A DNA stretch of 64,000 nucleotides from Alphaproteobacteria bacterium (lineage in GTDB: Bacteria > Pseudomonadota > Alphaproteobacteria > RF32 > CAG-239): positions 1,726 to 65,725 of the forward strand of contig SUUV01000002.1 of assembly GCA_015062345.1 (NCBI GenBank), given 5' to 3'. Positions 4,978-49,251 of this stretch are shown in pieces. Under the pieces are notes generated by a model, which was not told the DNA's origin, made no database searches, and saw nothing but the letters and a program-made list of their open reading frames with translations. How positions within the stretch are numbered: position 1 is the first letter of the stretch; each line of letters begins with the position of its first letter. The translations under genes and the position numbers were made by a program.

Positions 4978-5451
4978 CTATTCAATATAGAAAACTTCAA
5001 ATGATTTTGTGTAATGACCTGCTGGCATGCCTGCAGGTATAGTTACATCTGCCCTGATTAACAATCTAACACCATCCATGCCTGTTTGTTGCATATCTAA
5101 TGCTACATCAATCGTATTATCTTTATTCCCCAAAGTGATAGTATCTTCCATATATACTTTTGATAAATCAATTTCGGAGGTAAGACCAAAATTACATTCA
5201 CTAGCATCTGCCCCATCAACTCTTACAACAGAACCGCCCAAGTTATATGCTTGATCAATACTAACACTAAAAGTACCATCTTCTTCAGAAGCTGAATCAA
5301 GGTAAATAGTACCTAATTCAAGTGAAGAACAAGTAATATTATTAACATATTTAATATCTGCATTAACCTCAACTGTACCATAACTGTTTTCAGCATTTGC
5401 TGATGTTGCAGCCATTAAAGCAACTGCGCTTAAAAGAAAATATTTTCTCAT
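4978..5451 (-). CDS. Secreted DUF4402-like/pilin-like protein, family copy 1
   Basis: MRKYFLLSAVAL signal peptide, C..L.LGTIY, second Cys, C-terminal TIPAG.PAGHYTKSF; paralogous to 8 other loci in the window. Confidence 0.8.
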   Translation of the reverse strand: MRKYFLLSAVALMAATSANAENSYGTVEVNADIKYVNNITCSSLELGTIYLDSASEEDGTFSVSIDQAYNLGGSVVRVDGADASECNFGLTSEIDLSKVYMEDTITLGNKDNTIDVALDMQQTGMDGVRLLIRADVTIPAGMPAGHYTKSFEVFYIE

Positions 5452-5485
5452 ATTATTTAATCCTTAAAAATAGTTAAACTTAATT

Positions 5486-5586
5486 TGAAAGGTGCAAAAA
5501 TTTACCTTTCACATCGCATCATAAACCGTTTTTTTTTTTTGCAAGTAAAAAGAGTCTAAATGTGGATTTAAATCAAAAATGGTGTA
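5486..5586 (-). promoter_or_regulatory. Conserved family promoter module, copy 1 (A12)
   Basis: Coding strand: TACACCATTTTTGATTTAAAT..GACTC-7bp-TTGCAA-A10-CGGTT-TATGAT, then TGAAAGGT...ACCTTTCA hairpin; T12 at 5529-5540. Confidence 0.8.
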
Positions 5587-5606
5587 GAGGTGTCTCTCTC
5601 ATCACC

Positions 5607-6000
5607 GCCATACCGGTGCCCGAACTTTAGTTCGGAATAGACACCGGTATCTAAGGGAATAATTTAGCTATATAATTTAACCTGGACTCCGGCATCAAGT
5701 GCCGGAGTGACAGTTAGGAGGCGCTTGCAAAGTATGAGGATAAAAAACAAATATTTTTTAAAATTAATGTAGTGCATATTCACCTCACGGTCATACCGGT
5801 GCCCAAGCTTTAGCTTGGAATAGACACCGGTATCCAGGGGAATAATTTAGCTATATAATTTAACCTGGACTCCGGCATCAAGTGCCGGAGTGACAGTTAG
5901 GAGGTGGACTTCAGCATCAAGTGCCGGAGTGACAGTTAGGGGCGGTTTCAAAGTATGAGGATACAAAACAAAAATCTTGTGTTTTTTACTAATTCGAAGA
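5607..6000. repeat. RPE/REP-like nested palindrome array A (2 units plus a half unit)
   Basis: GTCATACCGGTG...CACCGGTATC(C/T)A(G/A)G...CCTGGACTCCGGCATCAAGTGCCGGAGTGAC units about 183 bp apart. Confidence 0.9.
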
Positions 6001-9687: not shown

Positions 9688-10143
9688 TTATTCTTGAGTT
9701 ATGGTTAATGTAAACGAACCTGTGTATTCGCCGGGTTTAACATTGGCGGGGATTGTAAGTATGGCATTCAAGAAACCATCTGAATAAGTCGGTTGCAAAG
9801 CCATTACATCACCATTAATATTTTTTAAATATATAGTATCCATGTCAAAAAACAATGGATCTTCGGTTACAGGTTCTCCATTAGCTTTATAACATGACGG
9901 TGAAGAAAAACTACTTATTGATAAAAGATCACCGTAGGGCTCAAATTGCGCTCCGCCAGTATCCAGAACAATTGCCTCATTGCCTTGTTTTACAACAATT
10001 GTTCCAAAGTCAATATCATCACAGGTAAAAGTGCCTGCCACTTCAATTGTAGCTTTTGCGGTTACTTCGGCATAATCGGTTGTTGCATTTGCTGTGCTTG
10101 TAGCCAAGAGAGCCACAGCGCTCAAAAGAAAATATTTTCTCAT
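9688..10143 (-). CDS. Secreted DUF4402-like protein, family copy 2
   Basis: MRKYFLLSAVALL, TCDDIDFGTIVV, LTIPANVKPGEYTGSFTLT. Confidence 0.85.
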   Translation of the reverse strand: MRKYFLLSAVALLATSTANATTDYAEVTAKATIEVAGTFTCDDIDFGTIVVKQGNEAIVLDTGGAQFEPYGDLLSISSFSSPSCYKANGEPVTEDPLFFDMDTIYLKNINGDVMALQPTYSDGFLNAILTIPANVKPGEYTGSFTLTITQE

Positions 10144-10181: not shown

Positions 10182-10282
10182 TGAAAGGTGCAAAAATTTA
10201 CCTTTCACATCGCATCATAAACCGTTTTTTTTTTTTGCAAGTAAAAAGAGTCTAATTGTGAATTTAAATCAAATTTGAGGTA
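10182..10282 (-). promoter_or_regulatory. Family promoter module, copy 2 (A12)
   Basis: Near-identical to 5486-5586; T12 at 10225-10236, GAGTC at 10248. Confidence 0.8.
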
Positions 10283-12747: not shown

Positions 12748-13191
12748 CTAGTAAGTTGAAGTTACGGTAAATGAACCGGTATATGTACCGGATTCAATTT
12801 GAGCGGGAATAGTTAATTTACCACCAATATCAGTTTCAGTGGTATTTAATTCTACAGTTAATTTTTTTGTTTTTCCTTCTGCTGAAAGTTCAACACTTGT
12901 AGGCATATTATAGTTTGCTTCATCAGAGTAACAACCGGCCATACTTTCTCCGGTAACTGATATGATATCGCCGGAAATATCAGGCTCATCGTACCCTGAA
13001 GAATCGACAAATATCGTAGAAATTCCATTGTTTTGTTTAACAACAATTGTACCAAAATCTAAATCTGAACACTCAAAAATACCGGCAACTTGAATGGTAG
13101 CTCTTGCGGTAACTTCTGCGTATTCTGTTGTTGCGTTGGCTGTGCTTGCAACTAAAAGCGCAACAGCGCTTAAAAGAAAATATTTTCTCAT
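12748..13191 (-). CDS. Secreted DUF4402-like protein, family copy 3
   Basis: Likely start ATG 13191 (MRKYFLLSAVALL); ECSDLDFGTIVV; GGKLTIPAQIESGTYTGSFTVT. Confidence 0.85.
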   Translation of the reverse strand: MRKYFLLSAVALLVASTANATTEYAEVTARATIQVAGIFECSDLDFGTIVVKQNNGISTIFVDSSGYDEPDISGDIISVTGESMAGCYSDEANYNMPTSVELSAEGKTKKLTVELNTTETDIGGKLTIPAQIESGTYTGSFTVTSTY

Positions 13192-13230: not shown

Positions 13231-13331
13231 TGAAAGGTGCAAAAATTTACCTTTCACATCACATCATAAACCGTTTTTTTTTTTTGCAAGTAAAAAGAGT
13301 CTAATTGTGAATTTAAATCAAAAATGGTGTA
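13231..13331 (-). promoter_or_regulatory. Family promoter module, copy 3 (A12)
   Basis: T12 at 13274-13285, GAGTC at 13297, distal motif ends at 13331. Confidence 0.8.
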
Positions 13332-26862: not shown

Positions 26863-27325
26863 AAAATTTAAAATCGGGATAGATTATCATGGCGTAATCA
26901 CCGCTAATCCGGATTTTTTTAAAAAATTTAACCGCTATGCGTTGGATAATAATTGTTTGATATATGTTATCAGCGGCGGGCATACAAAAGATATTGAAAA
27001 ATATTTAACCGAAAAACAGATATCATATTCTGCCATATGGTCAACACTTGACTATTATGATAAATTGCAAGAAGTGAGATATAACCAGGACGGAACATTT
27101 AAGGTTGATGACATATTGTGGGATAGCGCAAAAGCATTGTATTGTGCTCAAAATGATATCAATGTTCATATTGATGATTCGGTTGTTTACGGAAAATATT
27201 TCACAACTCCGTTTTGTTTGTATAATATCTTAGAAAAAAAATGCCTGATAAACGACAAATATATCAGCTTCAACCAAACACCTGAAAAAGTGCTTAAAAG
27301 CCTTCTTGATGTAACAAAAAAATAA
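26855..27325 (+). CDS. HAD-like hypothetical protein
   Basis: KIGIDYHGVI (motif I variant), ISG, K, HIDDS. Confidence 0.55.
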   Translation: MNKKFKIGIDYHGVITANPDFFKKFNRYALDNNCLIYVISGGHTKDIEKYLTEKQISYSAIWSTLDYYDKLQEVRYNQDGTFKVDDILWDSAKALYCAQNDINVHIDDSVVYGKYFTTPFCLYNILEKKCLINDKYISFNQTPEKVLKSLLDVTKK

Positions 27326-27370
27326 CGACGAAAGTATTAAAACTTCCGCCGTTAATGTCAGCAAAAAGTT

Positions 27371-27853
27371 TTATTCAGCTGTTGCATATAATGTATAAGT
27401 GCCTTCATACGAGCCTGCAGGATAGTTGGCAGGGATATGTAACATTCCACCAATTGATACGCCTTCACCACCAGCTCCAAGTTCATAAATACTATCTTCA
27501 TCAATATAAAACTCAAGCTGCGCTGCATCTTCACCTTCGCCTATCACCGGTCCAAATTCAGCTCGTTGTTCGGAATCTATATTTGAAAGAGAACTAAAAT
27601 CACCAGTGCATTCTGCATCTGTACCTCCTTCAGCAAAAACTGCCGCCCCGGTTACAGCACCACTTGTTGTTACGGTGGAAGGTTGACCATTTGTTTTTAT
27701 ATATATAGTACCAAGATTAAACTCTGAACAGTTTAATTCTTGTATGTGTTTAATAGTAGCATTAACTCCAATATTGCCTGTAACATCACTTGCGGCATTT
27801 GCCGTTGTTGTAATTAATATTGCCACAGCGCTCAAAAGAAAATATTTTCTCAT
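27371..27853 (-). CDS. Secreted DUF4402-like protein, family copy 4
   Basis: MRKYFLLSAVAIL, NCSEFNLGTIY, GGMLHIPANYPAGSYEGTYTL. Confidence 0.85.
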   Translation of the reverse strand: MRKYFLLSAVAILITTTANAASDVTGNIGVNATIKHIQELNCSEFNLGTIYIKTNGQPSTVTTSGAVTGAAVFAEGGTDAECTGDFSSLSNIDSEQRAEFGPVIGEGEDAAQLEFYIDEDSIYELGAGGEGVSIGGMLHIPANYPAGSYEGTYTLYATAE

Positions 27854-27886
27854 AATTTTAATCCTTAAAAATAGTTAAACTTAATT

Positions 27887-27986
27887 TGAAAGGTGTAGAA
27901 ATCACCTTTCACATCACATCATAAACCGTTTTTTTTTTTTGCAAGTAAAAAGAGTCTGTTTGTAGATTTAAATCAAAAATGATGTA
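27887..27986 (-). promoter_or_regulatory. Family promoter module, copy 4 (A12)
   Basis: T12 at 27929-27940, GAGTC at 27952. Confidence 0.8.
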
Positions 27987-28006
27987 GAGGTGTCTCTCTC
28001 ATCACC

Positions 28007-28208
28007 ATCATACCGATGCCCGAACTTTAGTTCGGAATAGACACCGGTATTCAGGGAATAAATAAAGCTATATTACCACCTGGACTCCGTGGTCAAGCCA
28101 CGGAGTGACAGTTAGGAGGTGGACTCCGGCATCAAGTGCCGGAGTGACAGTTAGGAGGCGGACTTCAGCATCAAGTGCCGGAGTGACAGTTAGGAGGCGG
28201 ACTCCGGT
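28007..28208. repeat. RPE/REP-like palindrome array C
   Basis: One full unit plus tandem 39-bp right-half hairpins, including the variant GGACTCCGTGGTCAAGCCACGGAGTGAC. Confidence 0.88.
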
Positions 28209-28263
28209 AATAATTGCTTACTAAAGTTATTAAGAGGTGATAAATATAAATTTGTTTGACTAT

Positions 28264-28332
28264 TACCTCAAAAATGATTAGATATCCACAATAGACTCTT
28301 TAAAATTGCAAAAAAAAAAAACGGTTTAGAAT
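28264..28332 (+). promoter_or_regulatory. Poly-A promoter of pilin 1 (A12), homologous to the family promoter
   Basis: TACCTCA..TGATT..ATCCACA.TAGACTC-7bp-TTGCAA (28306) - A tract 28310-28321 - CGGTT - TAGAAT (28327). Confidence 0.75.
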
Positions 28333-28363
28333 GTGAACAGAATATAATATATGGAGTTAGTTG

Positions 28364-28993
28364 ATGAGAAAAGTTTGTGAGCTTGGAAGAAGTATGGTTG
28401 AGATGTTAGGAGTTCTTGCCATAATCGGAGTTTTATCGGTTGGCGGAATTGCCGGTTACTCAAAAGCAATGATGAAACATAAAATGAACGAACATAGAGT
28501 TATGCTTAATTCTCTTATTAATACTCTATTTATGTATGCGGATAAAGTTATTTCTTTCAATAATAATTCTACAGAAACAGTAATCATTAGTGAAACATTT
28601 TATAAATCAGGTCTTTTGCCTGATGATGTTAGATTATATGAACATAGCACCGATTATTTAAGAGATGTTTTTAATAATTCTATTTGGTTATTTACTAATC
28701 CTTATGCTAAGCAAGTAGGAATGGGATATACCATTACCGGAAATGAAACAGGGCGAGAAATATGTGTAAATCTGATAAATGTAGCAAAGGAAAATTCGGC
28801 TAATTTGTTTCAAATCCTATCCGATAAAAATGATGGAAATGATAACTATACTACACATGGACGATACTATGGTGATAAATTTTGCACTCAGGATGTAAGT
28901 TGCATCAGAAATATAACTTTTAATGATATAGATATCTTATGTAACAATTGTTATGACCGCAGTTGCAGATTTTATACGGTTATAGCATACTAA
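28364..28993 (+). CDS. Type IV pilin-like protein 1
   Basis: G|RSMVEMLGVLAIIGVLSVGGIAGY prepilin helix with E+5; Cys-rich variable C-terminus. Confidence 0.85.
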   Translation: MRKVCELGRSMVEMLGVLAIIGVLSVGGIAGYSKAMMKHKMNEHRVMLNSLINTLFMYADKVISFNNNSTETVIISETFYKSGLLPDDVRLYEHSTDYLRDVFNNSIWLFTNPYAKQVGMGYTITGNETGREICVNLINVAKENSANLFQILSDKNDGNDNYTTHGRYYGDKFCTQDVSCIRNITFNDIDILCNNCYDRSCRFYTVIAY

Positions 28994-29002
28994 TTTCTTT
29001 TA

Positions 29003-30400
29003 TCAACTATCTTGTCCGTACATTGCCGAGCTTTTATTTAAGGTATAAATTTCATTATCAGTCGGCAGATTATAGTAAACATATTCTACATTTGATAACT
29101 CATTGCCAAATTGCAAAACCTGACGACTTAAATTGTGCATAAATACGGCCCGCATAGTGTTATCTAATCTTTGTGAAAATTTATTTTTAAAATCAGGTGA
29201 TGTGATTATATTGGCTATCATAATGCCACCGTTTTTAAGATGATTTTTTACCATTTGAAAAAAATCTGCCGTTACAAAATTCAGCGGAATGCTTTGCACC
29301 GAAGAAAACACATCAACCACAATTAAATCATATTTATTTTTATCATTTAGCATAAAAAGATACGCATCTTGGTAAATAAACTTTTTGTTTTTGCTTAACG
29401 GCTTTTGTAAAAACTTTTCTTCCGCTATTGTTTGCAATTTTTTTTCAACATCTAAAAATGTATAATTGTTTTTTGTATCGTCAATTCCAACCGTAAAACC
29501 ACCGGCTCCCAAAACTAAAATGTCATAAATTTTATCATCGTTCATTGTTTTTATGAAATTATCGTTGATAAATTTTATGTAGTTAAACATCAAAGAACTG
29601 TCTGCGGAAATTTTTGATGAATGTGAACCGTTAATTTTCATCAATAAAGATTGAGCTTGGTTGCCAACAACATCTTCGGGAACAATTTCAAGTCTTGAAA
29701 CAGCATCGTCTTTTATCAAATAATTTGTGCCATATATCAAGTTTTCGTTGTTGAGCAAGTAGCAAAAAATTAAAAAAACAATAAGCAATATTAACGAGGG
29801 CAGTTTTTCTTTTTTGTGGCATATAATCAATAAGCAAGCAGATGTTAAACCGACCAAAACCATAATGGTTGCACTTACCGAAAGAAAAGGCATCAAAACA
29901 AGGGTGGTACCGATAGAACCGGCAACACTGCCGAATGTGTCAACTGCCATAAATCTGCCGGTATAATTTGTATCATAACGATGTATAATCCGGCCGATTG
30001 CCGATGTGATAAAGCCCATAAACACAGACGGAACAGCAATAAAAAACAAACAATATAAACTAACCGGAAGCAAAAAGCCTTTTATATTTAAAAAGTATAG
30101 AAAAATAAAATACACTTCCATAACATAATATGATGAAGCAACAACAAAAATTATGCCTAAAACAACAATCATCTTTTGTATCAATTTACGAAGTTTGTTT
30201 TTGCTTAGATTTATTACTGAGCCTAAATAATAGCCAAGGCTCATAAACATCAAAATAAAAGTGATGACAATTGAAGTAATTAAGGTGTTAGAGCCGACAA
30301 AATTAATCAACTGTCTTAGAACAATCAGCTCAAAAGAAAGGCTTGAATAACCCAACAAAAAAACAACGGCAAGTAGAGAAAATTTTAATTTGTTCGTCAT
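29003..30400 (-). CDS. Membrane-fused spermidine synthase-like SAM-binding protein
   Basis: N-terminal TM block, then ILVLGAGG, DAY and YDLIVVDVF. Confidence 0.75.
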   Translation of the reverse strand: MTNKLKFSLLAVVFLLGYSSLSFELIVLRQLINFVGSNTLITSIVITFILMFMSLGYYLGSVINLSKNKLRKLIQKMIVVLGIIFVVASSYYVMEVYFIFLYFLNIKGFLLPVSLYCLFFIAVPSVFMGFITSAIGRIIHRYDTNYTGRFMAVDTFGSVAGSIGTTLVLMPFLSVSATIMVLVGLTSACLLIICHKKEKLPSLILLIVFLIFCYLLNNENLIYGTNYLIKDDAVSRLEIVPEDVVGNQAQSLLMKINGSHSSKISADSSLMFNYIKFINDNFIKTMNDDKIYDILVLGAGGFTVGIDDTKNNYTFLDVEKKLQTIAEEKFLQKPLSKNKKFIYQDAYLFMLNDKNKYDLIVVDVFSSVQSIPLNFVTADFFQMVKNHLKNGGIMIANIITSPDFKNKFSQRLDNTMRAVFMHNLSRQVLQFGNELSNVEYVYYNLPTDNEIYTLNKSSAMYGQDS

Positions 30401-31357
30401 TTATAACCCTAATTTGTTTTTTATAAATTTCTCTAATGATTTTTCGTCTCGCCACATAATTTTGATATTAAGCACATTTATATGTTGCTTGATATCCGAA
30501 GGAATTTTTACATAGTCCTTGGATGTGGTAAATATAGCCAGATTTTCTTTTTTTGCTTCATCAATAATGCTCATTAAATCTTCTTTTGTATAAAAATGAT
30601 GGTCGGGAAAATCTTTTGTTCTTACAACATCTAAACCCACATTTTTAAGCGATTGATAAAGTTTTTCGGGATATCCGATACCGGCAAAAGCATATACTTT
30701 TGAGTTTGTAACTTTTGGCTTATCTTCTGTTATATCGGCAAAAAATATCGGTAAGTCGGTTTTGTGGGATAAATTTGTTTTATCATCACCTATTACAATG
30801 AGGGCATCGGCTCTTTTTATACCGCCGGCAAAAGTTTCACGCAACGGACCGGCCGGAATGACTGCGCCATTACCGATACCGAATTTACCGCTAAAGACCA
30901 AAAATGAAATGTCCTTATACAAACTCGGATTTTGAAACCCATCGTCCATTACCAAAATATCAGCTCCGTTATCTAAAGCCTGCTTGGCGGCTTTTGCTCT
31001 GTCGGCATTGATGCAAACAGGAGCAACCTCAGATAACAACAACGGCTCATCACCAACCTCATCAGGAGTATGAATTTGTTTGTTTACAACAACACCGCTT
31101 AATTTTCCGCCATATCCTCGAGATATAAAAAACGGATTTTTGCCGTATTTTTTTAGCATCTGCACTATTGCAATCGATACCGGAGTCTTTCCTGTACCTC
31201 CGGCGGTTAAATTTCCGATGCATATCACCGGTAAGCCGGATTTATAGGGCTTTTTAAGTTTAATTCTTAGTATTGTGGCAAAACAATAAAGCCAACCTAA
31301 CGGTAACAAAATATAATAAAAAATATTTTTTTTGTTCCAAAAGGTTGGCGTTTTCAT
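30401..31357 (-). CDS. lpxK: Tetraacyldisaccharide 4'-kinase
   Basis: GNLTAGGTGKTP, SRGYGG, GDEP, DDGFQ, FPDHH. Confidence 0.96.
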   Translation of the reverse strand: MKTPTFWNKKNIFYYILLPLGWLYCFATILRIKLKKPYKSGLPVICIGNLTAGGTGKTPVSIAIVQMLKKYGKNPFFISRGYGGKLSGVVVNKQIHTPDEVGDEPLLLSEVAPVCINADRAKAAKQALDNGADILVMDDGFQNPSLYKDISFLVFSGKFGIGNGAVIPAGPLRETFAGGIKRADALIVIGDDKTNLSHKTDLPIFFADITEDKPKVTNSKVYAFAGIGYPEKLYQSLKNVGLDVVRTKDFPDHHFYTKEDLMSIIDEAKKENLAIFTTSKDYVKIPSDIKQHINVLNIKIMWRDEKSLEKFIKNKLGL

Positions 31358-31374
31358 TTTAACATCCTGTTTTC

Positions 31375-32640
31375 TTAATCAAGATAGCATTGGATTTTTT
31401 CAACAATGCCGTCTAAAACTTTGGCTTCGCCATATGCCCAGTTGTAAGCAAGTGAGCGTTTGGCTTCCAAAAGTTCCGGATTGGTAAGCAGGTTTTCGAC
31501 CATTGCCATTAAGTCAATCACATCATTGACCTGAATGATACCATCGGCTTTTTTGGCTCTGTTGACGGCATCGGTAAAGTTATGCATATGCGGACCGACA
31601 ATTACGGCATCACGACAACGAGAAGGTTCCATAAAGTTTTGACCGCCATGCGGAATGAGTGAACCGCCGATAAACACCAAATCAAACAAATCATACCAAA
31701 TGCCTAACTCACCAATGGTGTCAGCAATGTAAACATTGGTATCGGAAGTGATTTTTTCACCGGCAGAACGCAAAGATACCTTTAAACCCAGTTCATTTTG
31801 CAATCTGTTCTTAATTTCAATGCCTCTGTGCGGATGACGAGGAGCAATAAAGGTCAACACATTGGGGATTTTCTTGTTTAAATCTTTTAAGAACTTACCG
31901 ATTCTGAATTCCTCATCTTCATGAGTGGAGCTTACAAGCCAAGTTGTACGATTGCCGATTTGTTCGGCAATTTCTTTTTTCTTTTCTTCATCAATAGGCA
32001 AAGGAAGACCTGCATATTTTAAGTTGCCCAAGCATAAAGTGTTTTTTGCCCCTAAAACTCTTAAACGATATTCATCTTGGTCCGATTGTCCCAAACACAG
32101 TGTAAAACAATCTAAAATTTCCTTAATGGCAAATTCAAACTGTTGCCATCTTTTGAACGATTTATTGGAAATTCTGCCGTTAACCAAAATCAGCGGAATG
32201 TTCTTTCTTTTGATGCAAGAAAGTGTTGACGGCCAAAATTCGGACTCAAACCACAAAGCAATGTCAGGACGCCAATGTCTTATAAATCTGGTTGCAAATG
32301 TAGGATTTTCAATCGGCAAATATTGATGAAATGCGCGTTCAGGCAAGCGTTTTGCCATAATTTCCGCAGATGTTGTAGTACCCGTTGTTACCATAATATG
32401 CGCATCTTGATATGTTTCAAGTAACTTTTGAATTAGCGGTAACATCGAAATAGATTCACCCACAGATGCGCCGTGCATCCAAATAAGTTTTCCTTCGGGA
32501 CGAGGTTTTGATGGACGACCGATTCGTTCGTTGAAGCGTTTTATATCTTCTTTTCCGTTCTTTTTGCGTTTTTCAATATATGGCTTAATAACAAGCGGAT
32601 ATAAAATACGAAGCAGAGTATTATAGATTCTAATCAACAT
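31375..32640 (-). CDS. waaA: Kdo transferase
   Basis: WMHGASVGE, ESEFWP, APRHP, GGSLIPHGGQN; likely start ATG 32640. Confidence 0.95.
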   Translation of the reverse strand: MLIRIYNTLLRILYPLVIKPYIEKRKKNGKEDIKRFNERIGRPSKPRPEGKLIWMHGASVGESISMLPLIQKLLETYQDAHIMVTTGTTTSAEIMAKRLPERAFHQYLPIENPTFATRFIRHWRPDIALWFESEFWPSTLSCIKRKNIPLILVNGRISNKSFKRWQQFEFAIKEILDCFTLCLGQSDQDEYRLRVLGAKNTLCLGNLKYAGLPLPIDEEKKKEIAEQIGNRTTWLVSSTHEDEEFRIGKFLKDLNKKIPNVLTFIAPRHPHRGIEIKNRLQNELGLKVSLRSAGEKITSDTNVYIADTIGELGIWYDLFDLVFIGGSLIPHGGQNFMEPSRCRDAVIVGPHMHNFTDAVNRAKKADGIIQVNDVIDLMAMVENLLTNPELLEAKRSLAYNWAYGEAKVLDGIVEKIQCYLD

Positions 32641-32659
32641 CAATTTAGTTCCTTTTATT

Positions 32660-33388
32660 TTAGTTAACTTTTTTGCGTTTGTTTTTAGGTAATGTCCCTT
32701 TCGGAATATACGGCATATTAAGTTCTTTGTCAATTTGCCATGTGAGGTTGTTAAGAGCATTTTCAATTTTTAAGCGATATGATTCCAAATCTTCCTTTGA
32801 AGCATTTTTATCAATTAAAAAAGGCTCGGTTACGGCACAAATGCCTTTGCTAAACGGCTTTGGCACAAACATTTTATCCCAACTTTGCTCAATAATAACC
32901 GAATTTTTTATGCTGTAAGTTACACCGATAACCGGAATGGCAGCTTTTTGAGCATAATATACAGGGCTTAAAGACATTGTCATTGAGGGGCCTCTCGGAC
33001 CATCGGGAATAATGGCAATTGTGGTACCGTTTTTTAGCTCTTTCATAATGGAAACAGCAGCCCCTTTGGCATTTTCATTGGTGGAGCCGTCAATGCTACC
33101 GATACCGAATTTTTTTAAAATAGCGGCAATTAATTGTCCGTCACGATGAGGTGAAACCAAAGCTTTTAATTTTTTTCGTTTATCCCAAAACGGAGGTATC
33201 ATCGGAGCTCTGCCATGCCATGCAACAAAAATTACACTGCCGTATTTTTCCAAGTTGTCATAAAAAGTTTCAACTCCACGCAAATCCCATCGGGTTGAGG
33301 CTTTTATGAGCCTGATATACCAATAGGCAACATAGCTTATGACATTGATGGCAAATTTAGATTTTGTAATTTTTTTTAATATAGACAT
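32660..33388 (-). CDS. DUF374 lysophospholipid acyltransferase-family protein
   Basis: WHGR, SPHRDG, PDGPRGP, SWDKM.VP.PF; upstream of waaA-lpxK. Confidence 0.85.
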   Translation of the reverse strand: MSILKKITKSKFAINVISYVAYWYIRLIKASTRWDLRGVETFYDNLEKYGSVIFVAWHGRAPMIPPFWDKRKKLKALVSPHRDGQLIAAILKKFGIGSIDGSTNENAKGAAVSIMKELKNGTTIAIIPDGPRGPSMTMSLSPVYYAQKAAIPVIGVTYSIKNSVIIEQSWDKMFVPKPFSKGICAVTEPFLIDKNASKEDLESYRLKIENALNNLTWQIDKELNMPYIPKGTLPKNKRKKVN

Positions 33389-33582
33389 TATGTGTTTCTG
33401 AGTTCAATTTTACAAGTTATTAACAAGCACATCATAAACATTTTTTTTAAATCTGCAATAACTTAATTAGCTTTTAACACTTAAGCCTGTGGATTAAAAA
33501 GATTTAGCATTGTCACCCTTGCCAAATGTTTATAGATTTCCTATATTATGATAAAGTAATAAATAGGGAGAAATCTTAAATT

Positions 33583-35913
33583 ATGTCCGAAAATAACGAA
33601 GATAAACAAAATAAGGCAATTCCGGTGTTGCCCTTACGAGATACGGTTGTATTCCCGAAAATGATTGTGCCGTTGTTTGTGGGGCGTCAAAAATCTATTC
33701 AGGCCTTACAGCAGGTCAACGAAATAGGCGGTAAGGTTGTTTTGGTAACCCAAAAAAAAGCCTCGATTGAAGACCCTAAAGAAAAAGATATTTACAATAT
33801 CGGAACACTGGGAAGTATTTTGCAAATGCTCAAACTCCCCGACGGTACGGTTAAGGTTTTAATTGAGGGTGTAGAGCGTATCATAGTAAACAGTTTTATT
33901 GATGACGGAAACTTTATCAGTGCCAAAATTGAAGCTTTGCCTGAAGTTTCTATGGACGAACGGGAAATTGAAGTTTTATCTCGCTCGGTAATTTCGTTGT
34001 TTGAAGAATATGTAAAGGTTTCAAGAAAACTTTCTCCCGATGTGATTGTGGCCGTTCGTCAAATTGAGGATTATAGCAAGCTTGCCGATACCGTTGCCTC
34101 GCACATTACCCTTAAAACCGAAGAAAAACAACAGCTTTTGGAAGCAGAAAATTTATCGTCTCGGTTTGAAAAGCTCTTAGAGTTTATGAATTCCGAGTTG
34201 GCGATGATTGAAGTTGAAAACAAGATAAAAAATCGTGTTAAGCAACAAATGGAAAAAAGCCAAAAAGAATATTATTTAAACGAGCAAATGAAAGCCATTC
34301 AAAAAGAGTTAAATGATGGTGATGAAGAAGATGAAATTTCGGCCTTAAAAAAACGCATTAATAATACTAAGCTTTCAAAAGAAGCCAAGGATAAGGCTTT
34401 GGCCGAATTAAGAAAGTTAAAAACTATGGGAGCGATGAGCTCCGAGGCTACCGTTGTGCGCAATTATCTTGATTGGTTGTTGGACATTCCGTGGAAAAAG
34501 CCCTCCAAAGTTAATAATGATTTGCAAAAAGCCACGCAAATTTTGGAAGCAGACCATTATGGTTTGGATAAGGTTACCGAACGCATTGTGGAATATTTGG
34601 CCGTGCGTTCAAGAGCAGATAAAATTAAAGGGCCGATTTTGTGTTTGGTCGGACCTCCGGGGGTTGGTAAAACTTCACTGGGGCAATCCATTGCCAAGGC
34701 AACCGGCAGAAAGTTTGTCAGAGCCTCGTTAGGCGGTATGCGTGATGAGGCCGAAATTAGAGGACACAGACGCACATATATCGGCTCAATGCCCGGAAAA
34801 ATTGTTCAGGGTATGAAAAAAGTCGGAACATCAAATCCGCTTTTCTTGCTTGATGAAATTGATAAATTGGGCAATGATTGGCGAGGTGACCCGAGCTCGG
34901 CGCTTTTGGAAGTGTTGGACCCTGAGCAAAATTCTACTTTTAATGATCACTATTTGGAAGTAGATTATGACTTGTCCGATGTAATGTTTGTGACAACCGC
35001 AAACTCTCTTGATATGCCAAGACCGTTGCTGGATAGAATGGAAATTATCCGTTTGTCGGGTTATACCGAAGATGAAAAAATCGAAATTGCCAAACGACAT
35101 TTAATTCCCAAGATTTTTGGTGAAAATGCGGTTAAATGTTCTGAGCTTTCCATCACCGATGAGGCAGTTCGTGACATTGTGCGCTATTACACTCGTGAAG
35201 CCGGTGTACGCAATTTGGAAAGAGAGCTTTCGGCCATTGCCCGAAAAGCCGTAAAAGAAATTTTGCTTTCAAAGGATAAGTGTTTAAAAATTGAAGTTAC
35301 GGCCGAAAATTTGGAAAAATATTTAGGTATCAAAAAGTATCATTTCGGACAAGCCGAAGAAACCGACCATATCGGTGTTACTACCGGTCTTGCGTGGACG
35401 GAAGTCGGTGGTGACATACTTTTTATTGAAGCGGTGGATATGCCCGGCAAAGGCAAGGTTATGCAAACCGGAAAACTCGGCGATGTAATGAAAGAATCAA
35501 TTGATACGGCATATTCGGTGGTAAGAGCTCGCTCAAAAGATTTAGGCATTGAGCCTGATGTGTTTGAAAAGACCGATATTCATATCCATGTGCCTGAGGG
35601 TGCAACTCCCAAAGACGGACCATCTGCCGGTATTGCAATGTTTACAACACTTGTTTCGGTGTTTACAAAAACTCCGGTCAGAAAAGATGTAGCTATGACC
35701 GGTGAGATAACACTGCAAGGCAGAGTGCTCCCGATTGGCGGGTTAAAAGAAAAACTTTTATCAGCTTTAAGAGGCGGTATCAAAACCGTGATTATCCCCA
35801 AAGATAATGAAAAAGATTTGGCTGAAATTCCGGATAATGTAAAACAAAACTTAAAAATTGTACCGGTAAGTGAGGTCAAAGAAGTTTTAGAAATTGCCTT
35901 GAAAACTAAGTAA
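33583..35913 (+). CDS. lon: ATP-dependent Lon protease
   Basis: GPPGVGKTS, RGHRRTYIG, PKDGPSAG. Confidence 0.98.
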   Translation: MSENNEDKQNKAIPVLPLRDTVVFPKMIVPLFVGRQKSIQALQQVNEIGGKVVLVTQKKASIEDPKEKDIYNIGTLGSILQMLKLPDGTVKVLIEGVERIIVNSFIDDGNFISAKIEALPEVSMDEREIEVLSRSVISLFEEYVKVSRKLSPDVIVAVRQIEDYSKLADTVASHITLKTEEKQQLLEAENLSSRFEKLLEFMNSELAMIEVENKIKNRVKQQMEKSQKEYYLNEQMKAIQKELNDGDEEDEISALKKRINNTKLSKEAKDKALAELRKLKTMGAMSSEATVVRNYLDWLLDIPWKKPSKVNNDLQKATQILEADHYGLDKVTERIVEYLAVRSRADKIKGPILCLVGPPGVGKTSLGQSIAKATGRKFVRASLGGMRDEAEIRGHRRTYIGSMPGKIVQGMKKVGTSNPLFLLDEIDKLGNDWRGDPSSALLEVLDPEQNSTFNDHYLEVDYDLSDVMFVTTANSLDMPRPLLDRMEIIRLSGYTEDEKIEIAKRHLIPKIFGENAVKCSELSITDEAVRDIVRYYTREAGVRNLERELSAIARKAVKEILLSKDKCLKIEVTAENLEKYLGIKKYHFGQAEETDHIGVTTGLAWTEVGGDILFIEAVDMPGKGKVMQTGKLGDVMKESIDTAYSVVRARSKDLGIEPDVFEKTDIHIHVPEGATPKDGPSAGIAMFTTLVSVFTKTPVRKDVAMTGEITLQGRVLPIGGLKEKLLSALRGGIKTVIIPKDNEKDLAEIPDNVKQNLKIVPVSEVKEVLEIALKTK

Positions 35914-35918
35914 CAAAC

Positions 35919-35951
35919 AAAGGCTCTTGAACAAAATCAGGAGCCTTTTTT
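35919..35951. terminator. Terminator between lon and family copy 5
   Basis: AAGGCTC...GAGCCTT followed by T run. Confidence 0.7.
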
Positions 35952-35977
35952 ACGGTTTAATCCATATATTTTAATGA

Positions 35978-36457
35978 TTAGTATGTGTATGTTACGGTAA
36001 ATGAACCGGTATATTCTCCTGCTTTGACTTCTGCCGGAATTCTTAAGGTAGATGAAATAATACCCCTGCCACTACCACATTGATCACCTACAGCACCATA
36101 AGCACTAGCAGACATAGTATCACCTGAACTGTTTGTTAATACAAAATCATTAATATCTATTTCTTCATCCCAAAGAGTGTTACCATCTGAAGCGGTACAA
36201 CAAGTATAACTTTTACCACTAACAGAAATAAGGTCATCATATGAGGAAACAAACTCTTGAATAGGAATTTCTCCATCAATTTCTATGTCTGAATTACCCT
36301 GTTTAACAACAATTGTACCCCAATCCATATCATCACACTCAAAAGTACCTGCGACTTCAATTGTTGCCTTAGCTGTTACTTCAGCATAGTCGGTTGTTGC
36401 ATTTGCTGATGTTGCAGCCAAGAGGGCAGCTGCCGATAAAAGAAAATATTTTCTCAT
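35978..36457 (-). CDS. Secreted DUF4402-like protein, family copy 5
   Basis: MRKYFLLSAAALL, ECDDMDWGTIVVKQGN, LRIPAEVKAGEYTGSFTVTYTY. Confidence 0.85.
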   Translation of the reverse strand: MRKYFLLSAAALLAATSANATTDYAEVTAKATIEVAGTFECDDMDWGTIVVKQGNSDIEIDGEIPIQEFVSSYDDLISVSGKSYTCCTASDGNTLWDEEIDINDFVLTNSSGDTMSASAYGAVGDQCGSGRGIISSTLRIPAEVKAGEYTGSFTVTYTY

Positions 36458-36495
36458 TTTTTAATTCCTTTACAAAAATTCAGTTTAAGTACATT

Positions 36496-36596
36496 TGAAA
36501 GGTGCAAAAAATCACCTTTCACATCGCATCATAAACCGTTTTTTTTTTTTGCAAGTAAAAAGAGTCGTTTAAAGAATTTAAATCAAAAATGAGGTA
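36496..36596 (-). promoter_or_regulatory. Family promoter module, copy 5 (A12)
   Basis: T12 at 36539-36550, GAGTC at 36562. Confidence 0.8.
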
Positions 36597-36616
36597 AAGG
36601 TGTCTCTCTCATCACC

Positions 36617-36786
36617 GACATACCAGTGCCCAAGCTTTAGCTTGGAATAGACCCGGTATCTAAGGGAATAATTTAGCTATATTACCACCTGGACTCCGGT
36701 ATCTTCGTGCCGGAGTGACAATTAGGAGGCGCTTGCAAAGTATGAGGCTTAAAACAAAAATCTTGTGTTTTTTACTAATTTGAAGA
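36617..36786. repeat. RPE/REP-like palindrome unit D with conserved tail
   Basis: One unit plus tail ending TACTAATTTGAAGA, as in arrays A and B. Confidence 0.85.
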
Positions 36787-36914
36787 CACTAAAACATTTT
36801 TGTTTGCACAAAAATAAAGGGTGACAGTTTAAAGTTATTATTAATTCGAAGCAATATGACCTAACTAAAGTGTTTAAGCGGTGACTTTGTTTTTAAATAT
36901 AAAAAAAGCTCCCG

Positions 36915-37139
36915 TTATGAGAGCTTTTTTAATTGTTGTTTTAAATATTCCAAAATATAAACTCTGATTGCACTTGATAAATTTTTGTTTTCATCACGAT
37001 TTATATCAATTTTGCTTACTAAGGCATTGATACTTTGGTTATTTTCTTTGGCTATGCTAAGCAAAACTTCATAAAATTCTTCTTCCAAAGTGATACTCGT
37101 GTAATGTCTGCCGGCAATGACAACGGAAATTTTTTTCAT
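36915..37139 (-). CDS. Ribbon-helix-helix domain protein (RHH_4-like)
   Basis: MKKISVVIAGRHYTSITLEEEF...NLSSAIRVYIL. Confidence 0.8.
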   Translation of the reverse strand: MKKISVVIAGRHYTSITLEEEFYEVLLSIAKENNQSINALVSKIDINRDENKNLSSAIRVYILEYLKQQLKKLS

Positions 37140-37140
37140 C

Positions 37141-37608
37141 TTATTTCTTTCGGAAACTGTCAATGGAAATAACCTCTGCCGGAGTAGAGTTCAAAGTTTC
37201 TTTTTCATCAACTTCAATATCTTCAAGGCGAGTTGCTTTGTCGCTTTCTTCAAAGTTAAAACTCAAACCGAATTTGGCATAAGGGTCGGCAAAATATGTA
37301 ATGGCGGCAAACGGCACAACCAAACGGTGAGGGACTCCGCCAAAGGTTAAAACAACCGAAAACTTATCATCGCTAACCTCTAAACCTGAAAATTGATGTT
37401 GCAAGACAATAGTCATATTTTCCGGATATTGAATTTTTAACATTTGCGGAATTTCAACTTCATCAAAATTTGTTTTGAATGTAATGTAATAATGGTTTTC
37501 CCCCGGTAAACCTTGCTTGGAAGCAATTTTTAAGGCATCAACCACAACCCCCATCAGATGTTTGCTGATTAATTTGTCATAATCAATTTCAGAAATATAG
37601 TCTTGCAT
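37141..37608 (-). CDS. sspB: ClpXP adaptor SspB (alphaproteobacterial type)
   Basis: GLPGENHYYITFKT, YPENMTIVLQHQF, C-terminal VISIDSFRKK; directly downstream of ssrA. Confidence 0.9.
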   Translation of the reverse strand: MQDYISEIDYDKLISKHLMGVVVDALKIASKQGLPGENHYYITFKTNFDEVEIPQMLKIQYPENMTIVLQHQFSGLEVSDDKFSVVLTFGGVPHRLVVPFAAITYFADPYAKFGLSFNFEESDKATRLEDIEVDEKETLNSTPAEVISIDSFRKK

Positions 37609-37639
37609 TTTTATCCTCAATTTAATAAGCACATATAAA

Positions 37640-38184
37640 AATGAGCCGTTCTGTTGCTAGGTGGCTCATTCCCCACTTTTAACAAACCAATGTCAAAAGA
37701 ATTTTGAATTTGTTGCTATCGCCTAAATTAAGCAGCTACTGCAACAGGTGCAAAATTATCATTTGCGTTCATTTATTTTGAACCGATAACGGTGGTATCT
37801 TGCCGAACACAGCAAAAGTATCTTTATTATATACTGTCTAACCTGTTTCACCCCCATAAAAATCGTATAAGTACTTTCATGCTTGCAACTTTTTATACTC
37901 GTGTACCTTTTTGTACACTTCGTATAAAAAATTTCGGCGCAGCAAAGCACTTATCCGCTTTTTGTTTTTAAGTACTTTCATGCTTGCAACTTTTTATACT
38001 CGTGTACCTCTTTGTACACTTCGTATAAAAAATTTCATCACAGCAAAGCACTTATCCGCTTTTTGTTTTTAAGTGGCAAGCACTTATATACAATATAAAA
38101 TGGTGGAGGTGCCGAGTACTGCCCTCGGGTCCAATATACCTATTTCATACCGCCTCTAGTGTCATAGTCAGTTACCTGACAAGC
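37640..38184 (-). ncRNA. ssrA: Two-piece (circularly permuted) tmRNA
   Basis: Acceptor piece ends ...GGCACCTCCACCA at 38101. Coding piece starts GGGGGTG at 37855 (G3-U pair). Tag ANDNFAPVAVAA* at 37766-37728. Outer ends approximate. Confidence 0.93.
37865..38091. repeat. Two tandem 101-bp palindromic elements in the tmRNA intervening segment
   Basis: Units start at 37868 and 37969, each with TTTTTATAC..GTGTAC-loop-GTACAC..GTATAAAAA. Confidence 0.88.
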
Positions 38185-38317
38185 ATTTTATAACAACACT
38201 TTTCACATTTTTCAAGTTGTTTTTTATCGCAATATTTATCTTATGCTCAAAAAAGCACTTGATTTTCTTTTTATTATCACCATAATGAAAAAAGTTTTTA
38301 ATATGAAAGGATAAGAA

Positions 38318-38851
38318 ATGTTATTTACACTGTTTTTTCTTTTTAGTTTGTTTTTTGTAAAATCTGTTTTAGCCAATCCGGCTTGTGCCGTGTGTACCAT
38401 AGCCGTAGGTGCGTCCTTAGAAATTGCTCGCAAGCTTGGTGTTGACGATAGTGTTGTCGGTGTGTGGGCAGGTGCATTTTTAGTGTTATTGGGTTATTGG
38501 ACCATTAAATGGTTTGATAAGAAAAATTGGCACTTTAAAGGGCGTGATTTTATCATCTTGGTAACTTCAGTTGCCATGATTGGTTTTATGTACATTAGTC
38601 AGCTTGAATATCATGCTGAGGTAATAGGAATTTTCTATCTTGACCCGTTTTTATTTAGCACCATTGCCGGTGCGGTTGTGTTGGTTTTATCGTCTGATTT
38701 TTATCAATGGATGAAGAAAAAAAATGGCGGTCACGCTCATTTTCCGTTTGAAAAAGTTTTTGTTCCGGTAGCATCGTTGTTCTTGCTTAGCGCATATTTT
38801 TATTATTTTCCGCTTTGCCAAAAAGCTGCCGAACCGTTATATAACTTTTAA
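38318..38851 (+). CDS. Membrane protein with N-terminal CxxC motif
   Basis: Signal/TM, ANPACAVCTIAVG, LGVDD, about 4 further TM helices, HFPFEKV. Confidence 0.75.
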   Translation: MLFTLFFLFSLFFVKSVLANPACAVCTIAVGASLEIARKLGVDDSVVGVWAGAFLVLLGYWTIKWFDKKNWHFKGRDFIILVTSVAMIGFMYISQLEYHAEVIGIFYLDPFLFSTIAGAVVLVLSSDFYQWMKKKNGGHAHFPFEKVFVPVASLFLLSAYFYYFPLCQKAAEPLYNF

Positions 38852-38894
38852 TTGTATTCTTAAATCATACATTATACATAAGAGAGAATCAGAA

Positions 38895-38921
38895 AGATAC
38901 TCCGACTAAGTCGGAGTATCT
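38895..38921. terminator. Perfect 12-bp-arm palindrome at a convergent junction
   Basis: AGATACTCCGAC-TAA-GTCGGAGTATCT; lacks long T runs, so the function is uncertain. Confidence 0.5.
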
Positions 38922-38956
38922 TGGTATGTTAGATTTTTATTAATAAGTAAAGATGT

Positions 38957-39409
38957 TTACTCATCTACATAAGTTACAGTAAGTGAACCGACATAGTGTC
39001 CACTTTCTACGTTTGCGGGAATTGTTAAAGTACCATATATTATGGCAGATGAACCAGATTCAGAAACAGGTGAAAAAGTCAACTCACTGTCATTTTCACC
39101 CGCTGTTAAAGTCACATCATTCATCGATAAACCATAAATAAAGCTACCACTTGAAAGTTGGCAAGTTGCTTTACCTTCTCCACTAACTGATATAATATCA
39201 TTTCCAATTTGCATATCCTCATCAAAGAAGGTTCTAATTGTTGTTTCTTGATTATTTAGTTTTACAACAATCTCACCAAAACTCAATGTGGTACACTCAA
39301 TAATATCTGCTACCGAAACTCGTGCATCTACATTTAATTCACCTACTTGAGCATTAACATTGCTTGCAGCCATCAAAGCCACAGCGCTCAAAAGAAAATA
39401 TTTTCTCAT
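38957..39409 (-). CDS. Secreted DUF4402-like protein, family copy 6
   Basis: MRKYFLLSAVALM, ECTTLSFGEIVV, GTLTIPANVESGHYVGSLTVTY. Confidence 0.85.
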   Translation of the reverse strand: MRKYFLLSAVALMAASNVNAQVGELNVDARVSVADIIECTTLSFGEIVVKLNNQETTIRTFFDEDMQIGNDIISVSGEGKATCQLSSGSFIYGLSMNDVTLTAGENDSELTFSPVSESGSSAIIYGTLTIPANVESGHYVGSLTVTYVDE

Positions 39410-39449
39410 AATTTAATCCTTTACAAAAATAGTTTAACTTAATTTTCAT

Positions 39450-39549
39450 TGAAAAGCTAAAAATTTACCTTTCACATCACATCATAAACCGTTTTTTTTT
39501 TTTGCAAGTAAAAAGAGTCTTTTAAAGGCTTTAAATCAAAAATGAGGTA
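39450..39549 (-). promoter_or_regulatory. Family promoter module, copy 6 (A12)
   Basis: T12 at 39492-39503, GAGTC at 39515. Confidence 0.8.
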
Positions 39550-39600
39550 ATAAAAATACCCGCTTTATAACAAGCGGGCAAGTTGTAAACGGTAATATTT

Positions 39601-40557: not shown

Positions 40558-40573
40558 TTAATTTCCTTTTATT

Positions 40574-41539: not shown

Positions 41540-41558
41540 AAAAATTCTCCTTAAAATT

Positions 41559-42406: not shown

Positions 42407-42559
42407 TATATCCTCCAAAATTTGCAAATTTATCAAAAAATTATTCTCAAGATACATACATTTTTTCTTTAAGTCCAGTTTTAATTTAAAATAGCTCTTT
42501 TTTTTCTTCAAAAATGTGTTATTGTAGATAAACAGATTTATTTTATCGGGTGAAATTAT

Positions 42560-43798: not shown

Positions 43799-43807
43799 AA
43801 CAACAGA

Positions 43808-43935
43808 TTAACCGTAAACATATGTAATTGACACAATGGCACTGTAACCGTCTTGTTCGATTCCGGCCGGAATGTTAAGCGTTGTACCGATATTAACCGA
43901 CTTTTCATCAGCACCAATTAAAAATGTAAAATCTG
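43808..43935 (-). pseudogene. 3' remnant of a ninth DUF4402-like family gene
   Basis: Minus frame reads ...DFTFLIGADEKSVNIGTTLNIPAGIEQDGYSAIVSITYVYG*; no signal peptide or poly-A promoter; fused to the distal motif. Confidence 0.7.
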
Positions 43936-44163: not shown

Positions 44164-44231
44164 TACCTCAAAGATGACTAATTATCCACAAGAGACTCTT
44201 TAAAATTGCAAAAAAAAAAACGGTTTAGAAT
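44164..44231 (+). promoter_or_regulatory. Poly-A promoter of pilin 2 (A11)
   Basis: GACTC 44194, TTGCAA 44206, A11 at 44210-44220, TAGAAT 44226; about 190 bp near-identical to the pilin 1 upstream region. Confidence 0.75.
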
Positions 44232-44262
44232 GTGAACAGAATATAATATATGGAGTTAGTTG

Positions 44263-49152: not shown

Positions 49153-49251
49153 TGAAAGGCAAAAAACTACCTTTCAATACGCATCATAAACCGTTTTTTT
49201 TTTTTGCAAGTAAAAAGAGTCGTTTAAAAGATTTAAATCAAAAATGAGGTA
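49153..49251 (-). promoter_or_regulatory. Family promoter module, copy 7 (A12)
   Basis: T12 at 49194-49205, GAGTC at 49217; module ends 1 bp before the neighbour's stop codon (49253). Confidence 0.8.

Follow-up and report, generated by a model that had tools for sequence, protein, structure and literature searches.

Certain genes of an uncultured alphaproteobacterium are preceded by a long A tract lying between hexamers that resemble the -35 and -10 elements of a promoter, and the question is whether this tract is a slippage-prone switch or a promoter part whose length is itself selected. The window, i.e., the whole stretch of DNA that was analysed (64,000 nt; G000:C47:1726-65725), comes from a genome of 1.58 Mb in 62 contigs with 36% G+C, referred to here as G000. 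An Rfam gathering scan of the window matched alpha tmRNA, and the 20 public runs found to contain a stretch of the window are animal gut or faeces metagenomes, all of DNA and none of RNA.

The initial annotation had described nine sites of the form TTGC-A(n)-CGGTT-TATGAT (or TAGAAT), and all of them are present in the window (Table 1). Its measurements were likewise reproduced: n is 12 at eight of the sites and 11 at one (44210), and with TTGCAA taken as the -35 hexamer the spacer amounts to n+3, i.e., 15 bp, or 14 bp at 44210. In every case the tract separates TTGCAA from a TAnnAT hexamer, and a gene in the same orientation lies downstream. On the coding strand the putative -10 hexamer is TATGAT at the seven sites preceding genes that begin MRKYF... 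and TAGAAT at the two sites preceding pilin-like genes. When one mismatch was allowed, the pattern TTGC+A11 matched nine times in the window against 0.69 expected, and none of 100 shuffles reached nine. Outside the nine sites the window has a single further A/T run of at least 9 nt (T9 at 6365). From their position we infer that the hexamers form a promoter.

Table 1. Cassette copies in the window and the genes behind them (tract position is that of its first letter on the forward strand).
Feature	Position	Strand	Tract	Remarks
Copy 1, putative promoter cassette	5518..5587	-	T12 at 5529	sequence reading and conservation
Copy 1, -10 hexamer TATGAT	5518-5523	-		
Copy 1, CGGTT	5524-5528	-		
Copy 1, A12	5529-5540	-		
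Copy 1, TTGC	5541-5544	-		
Copy 1, conserved 43-nt upstream box	5545-5587	-		
Copy 1, 5' leader	5452..5517	-		conserved hairpin 5486-5511; AAGGA ribosome-binding site; ATG at 5451
Copy 1, gene	4978..5451	-		DUF4402-like, putatively secreted, 157 aa, MRKYFLLSAVAL... signal peptide
Copy 2, core TATGAT-CGGTT-A12-TTGC	10214..10240	-	T12 at 10225	gene about 9688-10143 (-), DUF4402-like
Copy 3, core	13263..13289	-	T12 at 13274	gene about 12748-13191 (-), DUF4402 36.5 bits
Copy 4, core	27918..27944	-	T12 at 27929	gene 27371-27853 (-), DUF4402-like
Copy 5, core TTGC-A12-CGGTT-TAGAAT	28306..28332	+	A12 at 28310	gene about 28364-28993 (+), type IV pilin-like
Copy 6, core	36528..36554	-	T12 at 36539	gene 35978-36457 (-), DUF4402-like
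Copy 7, core	39481..39507	-	T12 at 39492	gene 38957-39409 (-), DUF4402-like
Copy 8, core TTGC-A11-CGGTT-TAGAAT	44206..44231	+	A11 at 44210	gene about 44263-45003 (+), pilin-like, long leader
Copy 9, core	49183..49209	-	T12 at 49194	gene 48559-49113 (-), DUF4402 34.5 bits

The conserved unit comprises a 43-nt upstream box (TACCTCATTTTTGATTTAAAT...GACTCTTTTTAC), TTGC, A12, CGGTT and the -10 hexamer, to which the main class adds a leader of 62-73 nt that opens with a conserved hairpin. AAGGA as the ribosome-binding site and a conserved signal-peptide start (MRKYFLLSAVAL...) complete it. The pilin class shares the end of the box (GACTCTTTAAAA) and the core, and has TAGAAT as the -10 hexamer and a leader of different sequence (31-34 nt). 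Among 119 distinct leaders, seven stem pairs of the hairpin are possible in 118 or more, and an eighth pair in 93; the changes are mostly from G-C to G-U, with scant true covariation, and in the Rfam gathering scan of the window, where alpha tmRNA was the sole match, the hairpin matched no family.

Conservation within the unit is uneven. Of 139 copies selected by the outer flank alone, 138 retain TTGC, 131 CGGTT and 135 the -10 hexamer (94-99%), while the columns neighbouring the core are 40-87% conserved. The conservation of CGGTT equals that of the hexamers and points to constraint beyond the needs of a spacer. One dead copy, which precedes a pseudogene of 55 aa, has A8 together with mutated flanks, and this is how unconstrained decay appears. 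In one diverged family member of G000 the tract is interrupted and 18 nt separate TTGC from TAAGAT, giving a spacer of 16 bp.

The nine sites of the window are a sample of 146 exact core copies in G000, or about one cassette gene per 11 kb of a 1.6 Mb genome. The tract is A12 in 117 of these, A11 in 18, A13 in three, A10 in one, A9 in three, A8 in three and A7 in one, although assembly or sequencing errors may account for part of the A11 and A13 tracts, given a 12-nt homopolymer in low-coverage bins with contig depths of about 3-8. TATGAT is the -10 hexamer in 131 copies and TAGAAT in 13, with single-base variants in two, and a further 15 copies differ from the core by a single base or are truncated at the end of a contig. 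Counted by length, the A/T runs of the genome number 445 (8 nt), 51 (9 nt), two (10 nt), 20 (11 nt), 126 (12 nt) and six (13 nt). All 154 runs of at least 10 nt fall inside the cassette, since the 15 that the exact pattern misses belong to the same module in altered or cut form. The cassettes also break the assembly, as a contig ends no more than 200 nt from 30 of the 146 copies. Logan contigs from four public runs covering 27300-46900 of the window reached a depth of 40-216 at five promoters vs. 3-20 elsewhere; no tract indel was seen among 12 of 30 indel rows, which, being from short contigs that break at the repeat and pile up on it, are uninformative on slippage.

Every one of the 146 copies is upstream of a co-oriented start region, and an intact family open reading frame (ORF) follows 134 of the 137 copies that are not cut by contig ends. 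The downstream genes fall into DUF4402-like small secreted proteins (122 copies), type IV pilin-like proteins (10) and a third family starting with MIKLF... (three); the remaining 11 copies have no downstream gene or are cut by contig ends. Assignment to Pfam DUF4402 (PF14352) varies in strength among the seven window proteins: six score at E<0.01, but only two of them (36.5 and 34.5 bits) reach the gathering cut-off of 25.2 bits, four staying below it, and the seventh, the protein of copy 1, has no Pfam match at E<0.01. In a protein atlas the product of 48559-49113 is grouped with DUF4402 clusters (score 0.95, TM 0.57-0.60), and a PDB profile search with the DUF4402-like profile gave no matches. 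A search of the open literature found no paper on DUF4402 and none describing the cassette.

By direct reading, the two pilin-like proteins of the window carry G/RSMVE and a hydrophobic helix (MLGVLAIIGVLSVGG), the one behind copy 5 starting with MRKVCELG/RSMVEMLGVLAIIG. Their scores with the prepilin N-terminal domain TIGR02532 (10.7 and 10.6 bits) are below its cut-off of 16.3, and G000 encodes a prepilin peptidase (A24) and T2SSE ATPases. The conserved 5' module stops abruptly, and the mature parts behind it are hypervariable. Mutual identity of the seven DUF4402-like window proteins is 25-34%, and a match of 250 nt or more to any paralog exists for just 22 of the 137 mature-coding parts, with a median nearest identity of 74%. 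Judged by these comparisons, the genes are evidently old, their bodies having diverged beyond DNA alignment.

A repeated unit of this kind raises the question of whether the core is a promoter at all, or instead marks the end or insertion target of a mobile cassette, or a site of recombination, by which the genes spread over the genome, with the hexamers there by coincidence. Indeed, the units are scattered singly among housekeeping genes (LpxK, KdtA, Lon, M16 peptidase, TerC, epimerase, citrate transporters), other short repeats adjoin many copies, and the spread is patchy, the exact A12 core being present in 15 of the 201 family genomes searched and in six of 23 genera, mostly in the genus of the window and in genus g8. 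Nevertheless, we hold such a site to be hardly probable, as the distance to the start codon is fixed within each class (the leader lengths given above), the orientation is fixed, a ribosome-binding site follows the core and TAnnAT stands at the right distance. In addition, the core is common to unrelated gene families, and neither transposase nor integrase was seen adjoining the copies examined in the window.

If the core is a promoter, its spacer is unusual for this genome. The premise of the initial annotation, an optimum of about 17 bp, is borne out by the other promoters of G000, which favour spacers of 16-17 bp: in 1281 cassette-free upstream regions, delimited by a crude gene finding that accepted any ORF of 100 aa or more, TTGnnn-Nx-TAnnnT pairs numbered 64 at x=17 (21 in shuffled sequence), 50 at x=16 (24) and 35 at x=15 (22). 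The 16S rRNA promoter reads TTGACA-17-TATAAG after an A/T-rich run. As the housekeeping holoenzyme here uses canonical spacing, 15 bp is off the optimum, and a scan for consensus promoters with 16-18 bp spacers did not call the cassette site. The hexamers fit the TTGnnn and TAnnnT of RpoD promoters, whereas the spacer (15 bp for A12, 14 bp for A11) falls outside 17 +/- 1 bp. On inspection of the window sites, no extended -10 (TG at -15/-14) was seen.

The same scan of 1281 regions gave an excess at x=12 as well (43 vs. 19 in shuffled sequence).

G000 has four matches to the sigma-70 family, comprising RpoD, two RpoH-like proteins and one ECF factor, with no FliA among them. Other promoter types were compared by eye with their consensus sequences and rejected: for sigma-54 (GG/GC at -24/-12) no GG is correctly placed, for sigma-32 the -10 is mismatched and the spacing would again be 16-17 bp, sigma-28 does not fit and FliA was not found, and for an ECF promoter (AAC...CGT) the spacing is wrong.

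Since the housekeeping preference is for 16-17 bp, TTGCAA-15-TATGAT should be weak for RpoD alone and A13-A14 stronger. It has accordingly to be considered that the cassette is a plain RpoD promoter, weak or off but poised at A12, in which the slipped-strand gain of one or two A (16-17 bp) switches single copies ON, so that a very large set of surface proteins would be expressed stochastically and in combinations; A12 would then be kept as a state one or two steps short of ON. This we consider possible, though unlikely. It agrees with the spacing peaks and the rRNA promoter, with the 16 bp spacer of the diverged family member, and with the pilin-like genes of cassette-free genomes of the same genus, which by eye show TTGCAA-16-TATAAT (L140) and TTGCAA-17-TAAAAT (L148). 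A13 or A14 tracts make up three of 146 copies in G000, three of 69 in G003 and at least six of 25 in G075, as would match a few ON copies among many OFF ones. The targets too are of the kind that varies in phase, i.e., secreted and pilus-like proteins with hypervariable mature parts behind a conserved 5' module. What this account leaves unexplained is the conserved CGGTT, for which a plain spacer has no need; moreover, MutS and MutL are both encoded in G000. The distribution of tract lengths bears on it further.

In relatives the length is strikingly constant. A12 tracts account for 117 of 146 copies in G000, 50 of 69 in G003, 43 of 60 in G013, 32 of 42 in G061, 37 of 50 in G086, 35 of 49 in G108, 14 of 21 in G129 and 12 of 25 in G075, so that A12 is the mode in all eight species over two genera, with 340 of 462 copies (about 74%; 48-80% per species). 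Since copies in the other genomes were counted with a search pattern that has TTGC and CGGTTTA as fixed letters, the conservation of these letters there is partly built in. The cross-genome check free of this bias is G013, where pilin-like genes were chosen by protein alone: 24 of 29 have the exact core (A12 in 18, A11 in three, A13 in three), and the other five are cut by contig ends, have long leaders or are variants (A9 with CGATT; A22 at a contig start). The profile of the seven window proteins gave no matches in G013, i.e., the core does not drive DUF4402 genes there. Instead it precedes a large pilin-like family (17 of 23 sites in the examined regions; about 50-60 genes), and the conserved box is shorter (GACTCTTTAAAA or AATCTTTAAAG) and is followed by TTGC. 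One core thus serves different gene families, upstream sequences and leaders in both G000 and G013. Among the matches listed in a contig scan, many of which were chance matches owing to an unconstrained gap, the loci from Alphaproteobacteria MAGs were used, and these uncultured Alphaproteobacteria have the same core before pilin-like genes. At L155 of G001, before a pilin-like gene in a cassette-free genome of the window's genus, the sequence is TTGC-A11-TAAACC-TATAAT, in which 17 nt from TTGC to the -10 are retained and the tract is interrupted. In five genomes of genus g8 lacking the A12 motif, the upstream box gave two single matches and no variant-length cassette was found.

Positional pairs between G000 and G003 allow the direction of change to be judged. 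Pairing by blastn on both flanks gave five pairs with short, repeat-like flank matches and was replaced by tblastx on one flank, which gave 42 pairs, some of which may be mis-paired tandem paralogs; 28 of them are 12/12 and 14 are discordant, 12 of the latter with an A12 partner. The presence of this partner indicates that the deviating lengths are derived. Tract length does vary among loci and among species, as the G000 tally and the 14 discordant pairs demonstrate, and these pairs are compatible with a switch. The variation is however skewed towards contraction, with 26 copies of A11 or A7-A10 in G000 (18 and eight, respectively) against three of A13, and the non-A12 copies of G003 are A11 (seven), A10 (three), A9 (four), A8 (two), A13 (two) and A14 (one).

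The proposal that most copies are silent by default and that A13-14 turns one ON does not sit well with these data. A 12-nt homopolymer slips far faster than bases are substituted, and a tract free of selection should therefore span many lengths by now. A12 remains the mode in all eight species even though the gene bodies have diverged, and A13 and A14 are rare. A truly silent state gives selection nothing to act on and could not be held at exactly 12, where neutral slippage should broaden the lengths; length 12 must therefore carry a phenotype that 11 and 13 lack. The caveat of the initial annotation, that A12 might be the selected functional length, fits better. Given the share of A12 in eight species despite diverged bodies and a CGGTT conserved like the hexamers, A12 is most likely a selected set-point and not a neutral OFF state. 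Two readings survive: A12 may be the optimum of a factor-assisted promoter, or it may be the deliberately low, poised state of an RpoD promoter which would gain strength at A13 or A14.

Uniform length could also arise by concerted evolution, in which gene conversion among the copies homogenises the 5' module, tract included, and A12 is a majority allele whose length is incidental and tolerated. An abrupt module end in front of hypervariable mature parts is the pattern that gene conversion of a 5' cassette leaves, and module positions with no obvious role are also fairly conserved. In addition, with nine copies near contig ends left out, the ORF is intact behind 108 of 109 A12 tracts, 19 of 20 A11 or A13 tracts and seven of eight tracts of A10 or shorter. 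Genes behind deviant tracts being intact like the others (27 of 29 overall), length deviation has no visible cost, and moderate changes may be harmless. Even so, homogenisation as the sole cause appears rather improbable to us. The same mode holds in two genera whose cassettes are unlike in their upstream boxes, -10 variants, leaders and gene families, which argues against pure drift of a majority allele, since under contraction-biased slippage such an allele should vary among lineages. Besides, a core kept at 94-99% beside columns at 40-87% speaks for site-specific constraint and not for blanket homogenisation.

Promoters with a homopolymer in or near the spacer are known from several pathogens. 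In Neisseria meningitidis porA and opc, a poly-G or poly-C tract between the -35 and -10 sets high, medium or no expression by its length. Unlike the cassette, these are single genes with optimum spacers of about 17 bp, and strains differ widely. Citti and Wise reportedly found in 1995 that each vlp promoter of Mycoplasma hyorhinis has a poly-A tract in its -35/-10 spacer and that the ON length gives the canonical spacer of 17 bp. Tract lengths differ among the vlp genes within one clone. Like the cassette genes, the vlp genes form a multigene family of surface proteins, with a conserved 5' region before every member and poly-A in the promoter spacer; they are, however, clustered and number seven or so, whereas the cassette has about 146 dispersed copies of near-uniform length with a 15 bp spacer. 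One report describes the vlp genes as a multigene system of variable surface proteins with conserved 5' regions and combinatorial expression (PMC4198240). In Helicobacter pylori sabA, an intergenic T/A tract next to the core promoter acts as a rheostat, grading output through local DNA structure and through the way in which the promoter elements are aligned along the helix axis, an arrangement common to several genes (PMC4081817). The sabA tract is located upstream of the -35, is highly variable among clones and is not part of a duplicated cassette, while the tract of the cassette is inside the spacer.

The closest working likeness is to the Bordetella fim promoters, which similarly combine a shared box with homopolymer spacing to the -10. 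In Bordetella pertussis and B. bronchiseptica the paralogous fimbrial-subunit genes fim2, fim3 and fimX share a "fim box," and the length of a C-stretch, which sets the distance from the activator region to the -10, alters the transcript level (PMC1891110). A conserved box split from the -10 by a homopolymer in pilus-subunit paralogs was found in both G000 and G013. The fim system comprises four genes with a C tract of widely ranging length, fim2 10-15 and fim3 13-18 in B. pertussis strains (PMC1891110), whereas the cassette has about 146 genes and an A tract that is exactly 12 in 74% of copies. Such wide ranges in a known system count against reading A12 as a switch in its OFF position. BvgA dependence is known for fim, and no activator is known for the cassette. 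Compared with all of these systems, the cassette stands apart in its approximately 146 dispersed copies, its near-fixed length and its modal, non-canonical spacer of 15 bp. A homopolymer of at least about 9 nt between promoter elements, as in phase-variable promoters, is found at 9/9 window sites and among the 146 genome copies, but the broad length spread among loci or strains is lacking (340 of 462 exactly A12), a usual hallmark of phase-variable repeats beside the two defining ones, variation within a population and expression that depends on length. We class the cassette as a putative homopolymer-bearing promoter of a surface-protein multigene family.

Taken in this way, the locus may belong to a dedicated, mass-duplicated promoter cassette in which A12 is the selected working length and an extra factor is probably needed, an account to which we would give an even chance. 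The cassette would give one common control to more than 140 surface or pilus-type genes scattered over the genome, and A12 would set the distance and the helical phase between TTGC with the upstream box and the -10. Because the housekeeping holoenzyme does not favour the 15 bp geometry, recognition probably goes beyond a plain reading of -35 and -10. The likeliest addition would be an activator or else a sigma contact extending to the conserved flanks, on the pattern of the Bordetella fim promoters. Copies of other lengths would be derived, mostly contracted and probably attenuated or off, and slippage would for this reason be at most a secondary, loss-biased tuning and not the trigger from OFF to ON.

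If the tract sets promoter geometry, the approximately 146 natural promoter replicates with their A7-A13 variants would amount to a built-in experiment on how spacer and A-tract affect initiation. Unless the reads are PCR-free or long, homopolymer miscalls at the cassettes would be taken for a biological signal. With lower probability, the genome may hold a contingency regulon of more than 140 surface genes, each behind a slippage-prone A-tract promoter that is on or poised at A12, where slips of a single base would dim or light every gene independently and yield an enormous combinatorial surface repertoire. Doubtful as this is, it would be by far the largest known repeat-controlled set of phase-variable genes, and it would be found in an uncultured, non-pathogenic lineage. 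Should slippage indeed switch these genes, large-scale stochastic surface variation would not be limited to pathogens such as Neisseria, Mycoplasma, Bordetella and Helicobacter, and would extend to uncultured gut Alphaproteobacteria, with a bearing on phage and immune evasion in the gut.

In the DUF4402 class, that is, the copies of the promoter-like cassette which precede the genes for MRKYF... secreted proteins, the 5' leader between the -10 box and the start codon contains a conserved hairpin with a stem of 7-8 bp (TGAAAGGT...ACCTTTCA). The hairpin begins approximately 7 nt past the -10 box and would therefore be placed at the predicted mRNA 5' end. Seven pairs are formed in at least 118 of the 119 distinct leaders, among which the changes are chiefly from G-C to G-U and true covariation is slight. 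No matching family was found in the Rfam gathering scan of the window. The hairpin may serve as a 5' stabiliser or as a protein-binding site.

Not all the related genes carry the cassette. In the genome to which the window belongs (G000), it is absent before three intact MRKYF/MKKYF-type genes. One of these has an interrupted tract, A7 followed by T6, with 18 nt from TTGC to TAAGAT, i.e. a spacer of 16 bp, and the upstream regions of the remaining two are unrelated. In G013, a relative from another genus of the same family, an A22 run replaces TTGC-A12 immediately 5' of CGGTT-TAGAAT at the very start of a contig (G013:C32:1-150, L226), being either a contig-end assembly artefact or a large expansion.

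In both genomes additional gene classes are found under the same cassette core, namely a Cys-rich secreted family in G000 and a short MSNF... class in G013. Many pilin-like genes encode long, variable N-terminal leader peptides ahead of the G|RSMVE site, composed of repeated peptide modules (e.g. ...GADKK... and ...VYKNGTRAKRRQADV...). Such long modular leaders are unusual in prepilins. The small genome of G000 also encodes two RpoH-like sigma factors and one ECF sigma factor, the gene of the latter adjoining that for a Spy-like periplasmic chaperone.

Features associated with the cassette and its genomic surroundings
Feature	Location	Strand	Remarks
Leader hairpin, cassette copy 1	window 5486-5511	-	equivalent place in other DUF4402-class copies
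Two short repeats	window 5689-5707 and 5589-5604		immediately upstream of cassette copies
tmRNA gene, alphaproteobacterial (permuted)	window 37640-38219	-	between two cassette copies
Pilin-like genes with long leader	window 44263-45003	+	also G013 loci L006, L012, L020, L023
MRKYF/MKKYF-type genes without cassette	G000:C53 offsets 11824, 12420; G000:C47 offset 31946	-
RpoH-like and ECF sigma factor genes	G000:C50, C21, C24 (L002-L004)
Cys-rich secreted family (MIKLFLFVLLVFPLVSEATTCVKDY...)	G000:C4, C5, C59		218-388 aa; 3 copies
Short MSNF... class	G013 L018, L019, L022, L024		core in TATAAT variant

In the 62-contig assembly of G000, 30 of the 146 cassette copies are situated no more than 200 nt from the end of a contig. 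The cassette is thus one of the main causes of assembly breaks, and its true copy number may therefore be above 146. Throughout the cassette-free upstream regions of this genome, TTGnnn-N12-TAnnnT pairs are over-represented (43 compared with approximately 19 in shuffles), and the excess may reflect another repeated element. The two short repeats immediately upstream of cassette copies are a palindromic CCGGCATCAAGTGCCGGAG-type element, of which there are 63 copies across the same genome, and a GGTGTCTCTCTCATCA element, of which there are 19. These two may be REP- or MITE-like, and they could be connected with the way in which the cassette-gene units spread.
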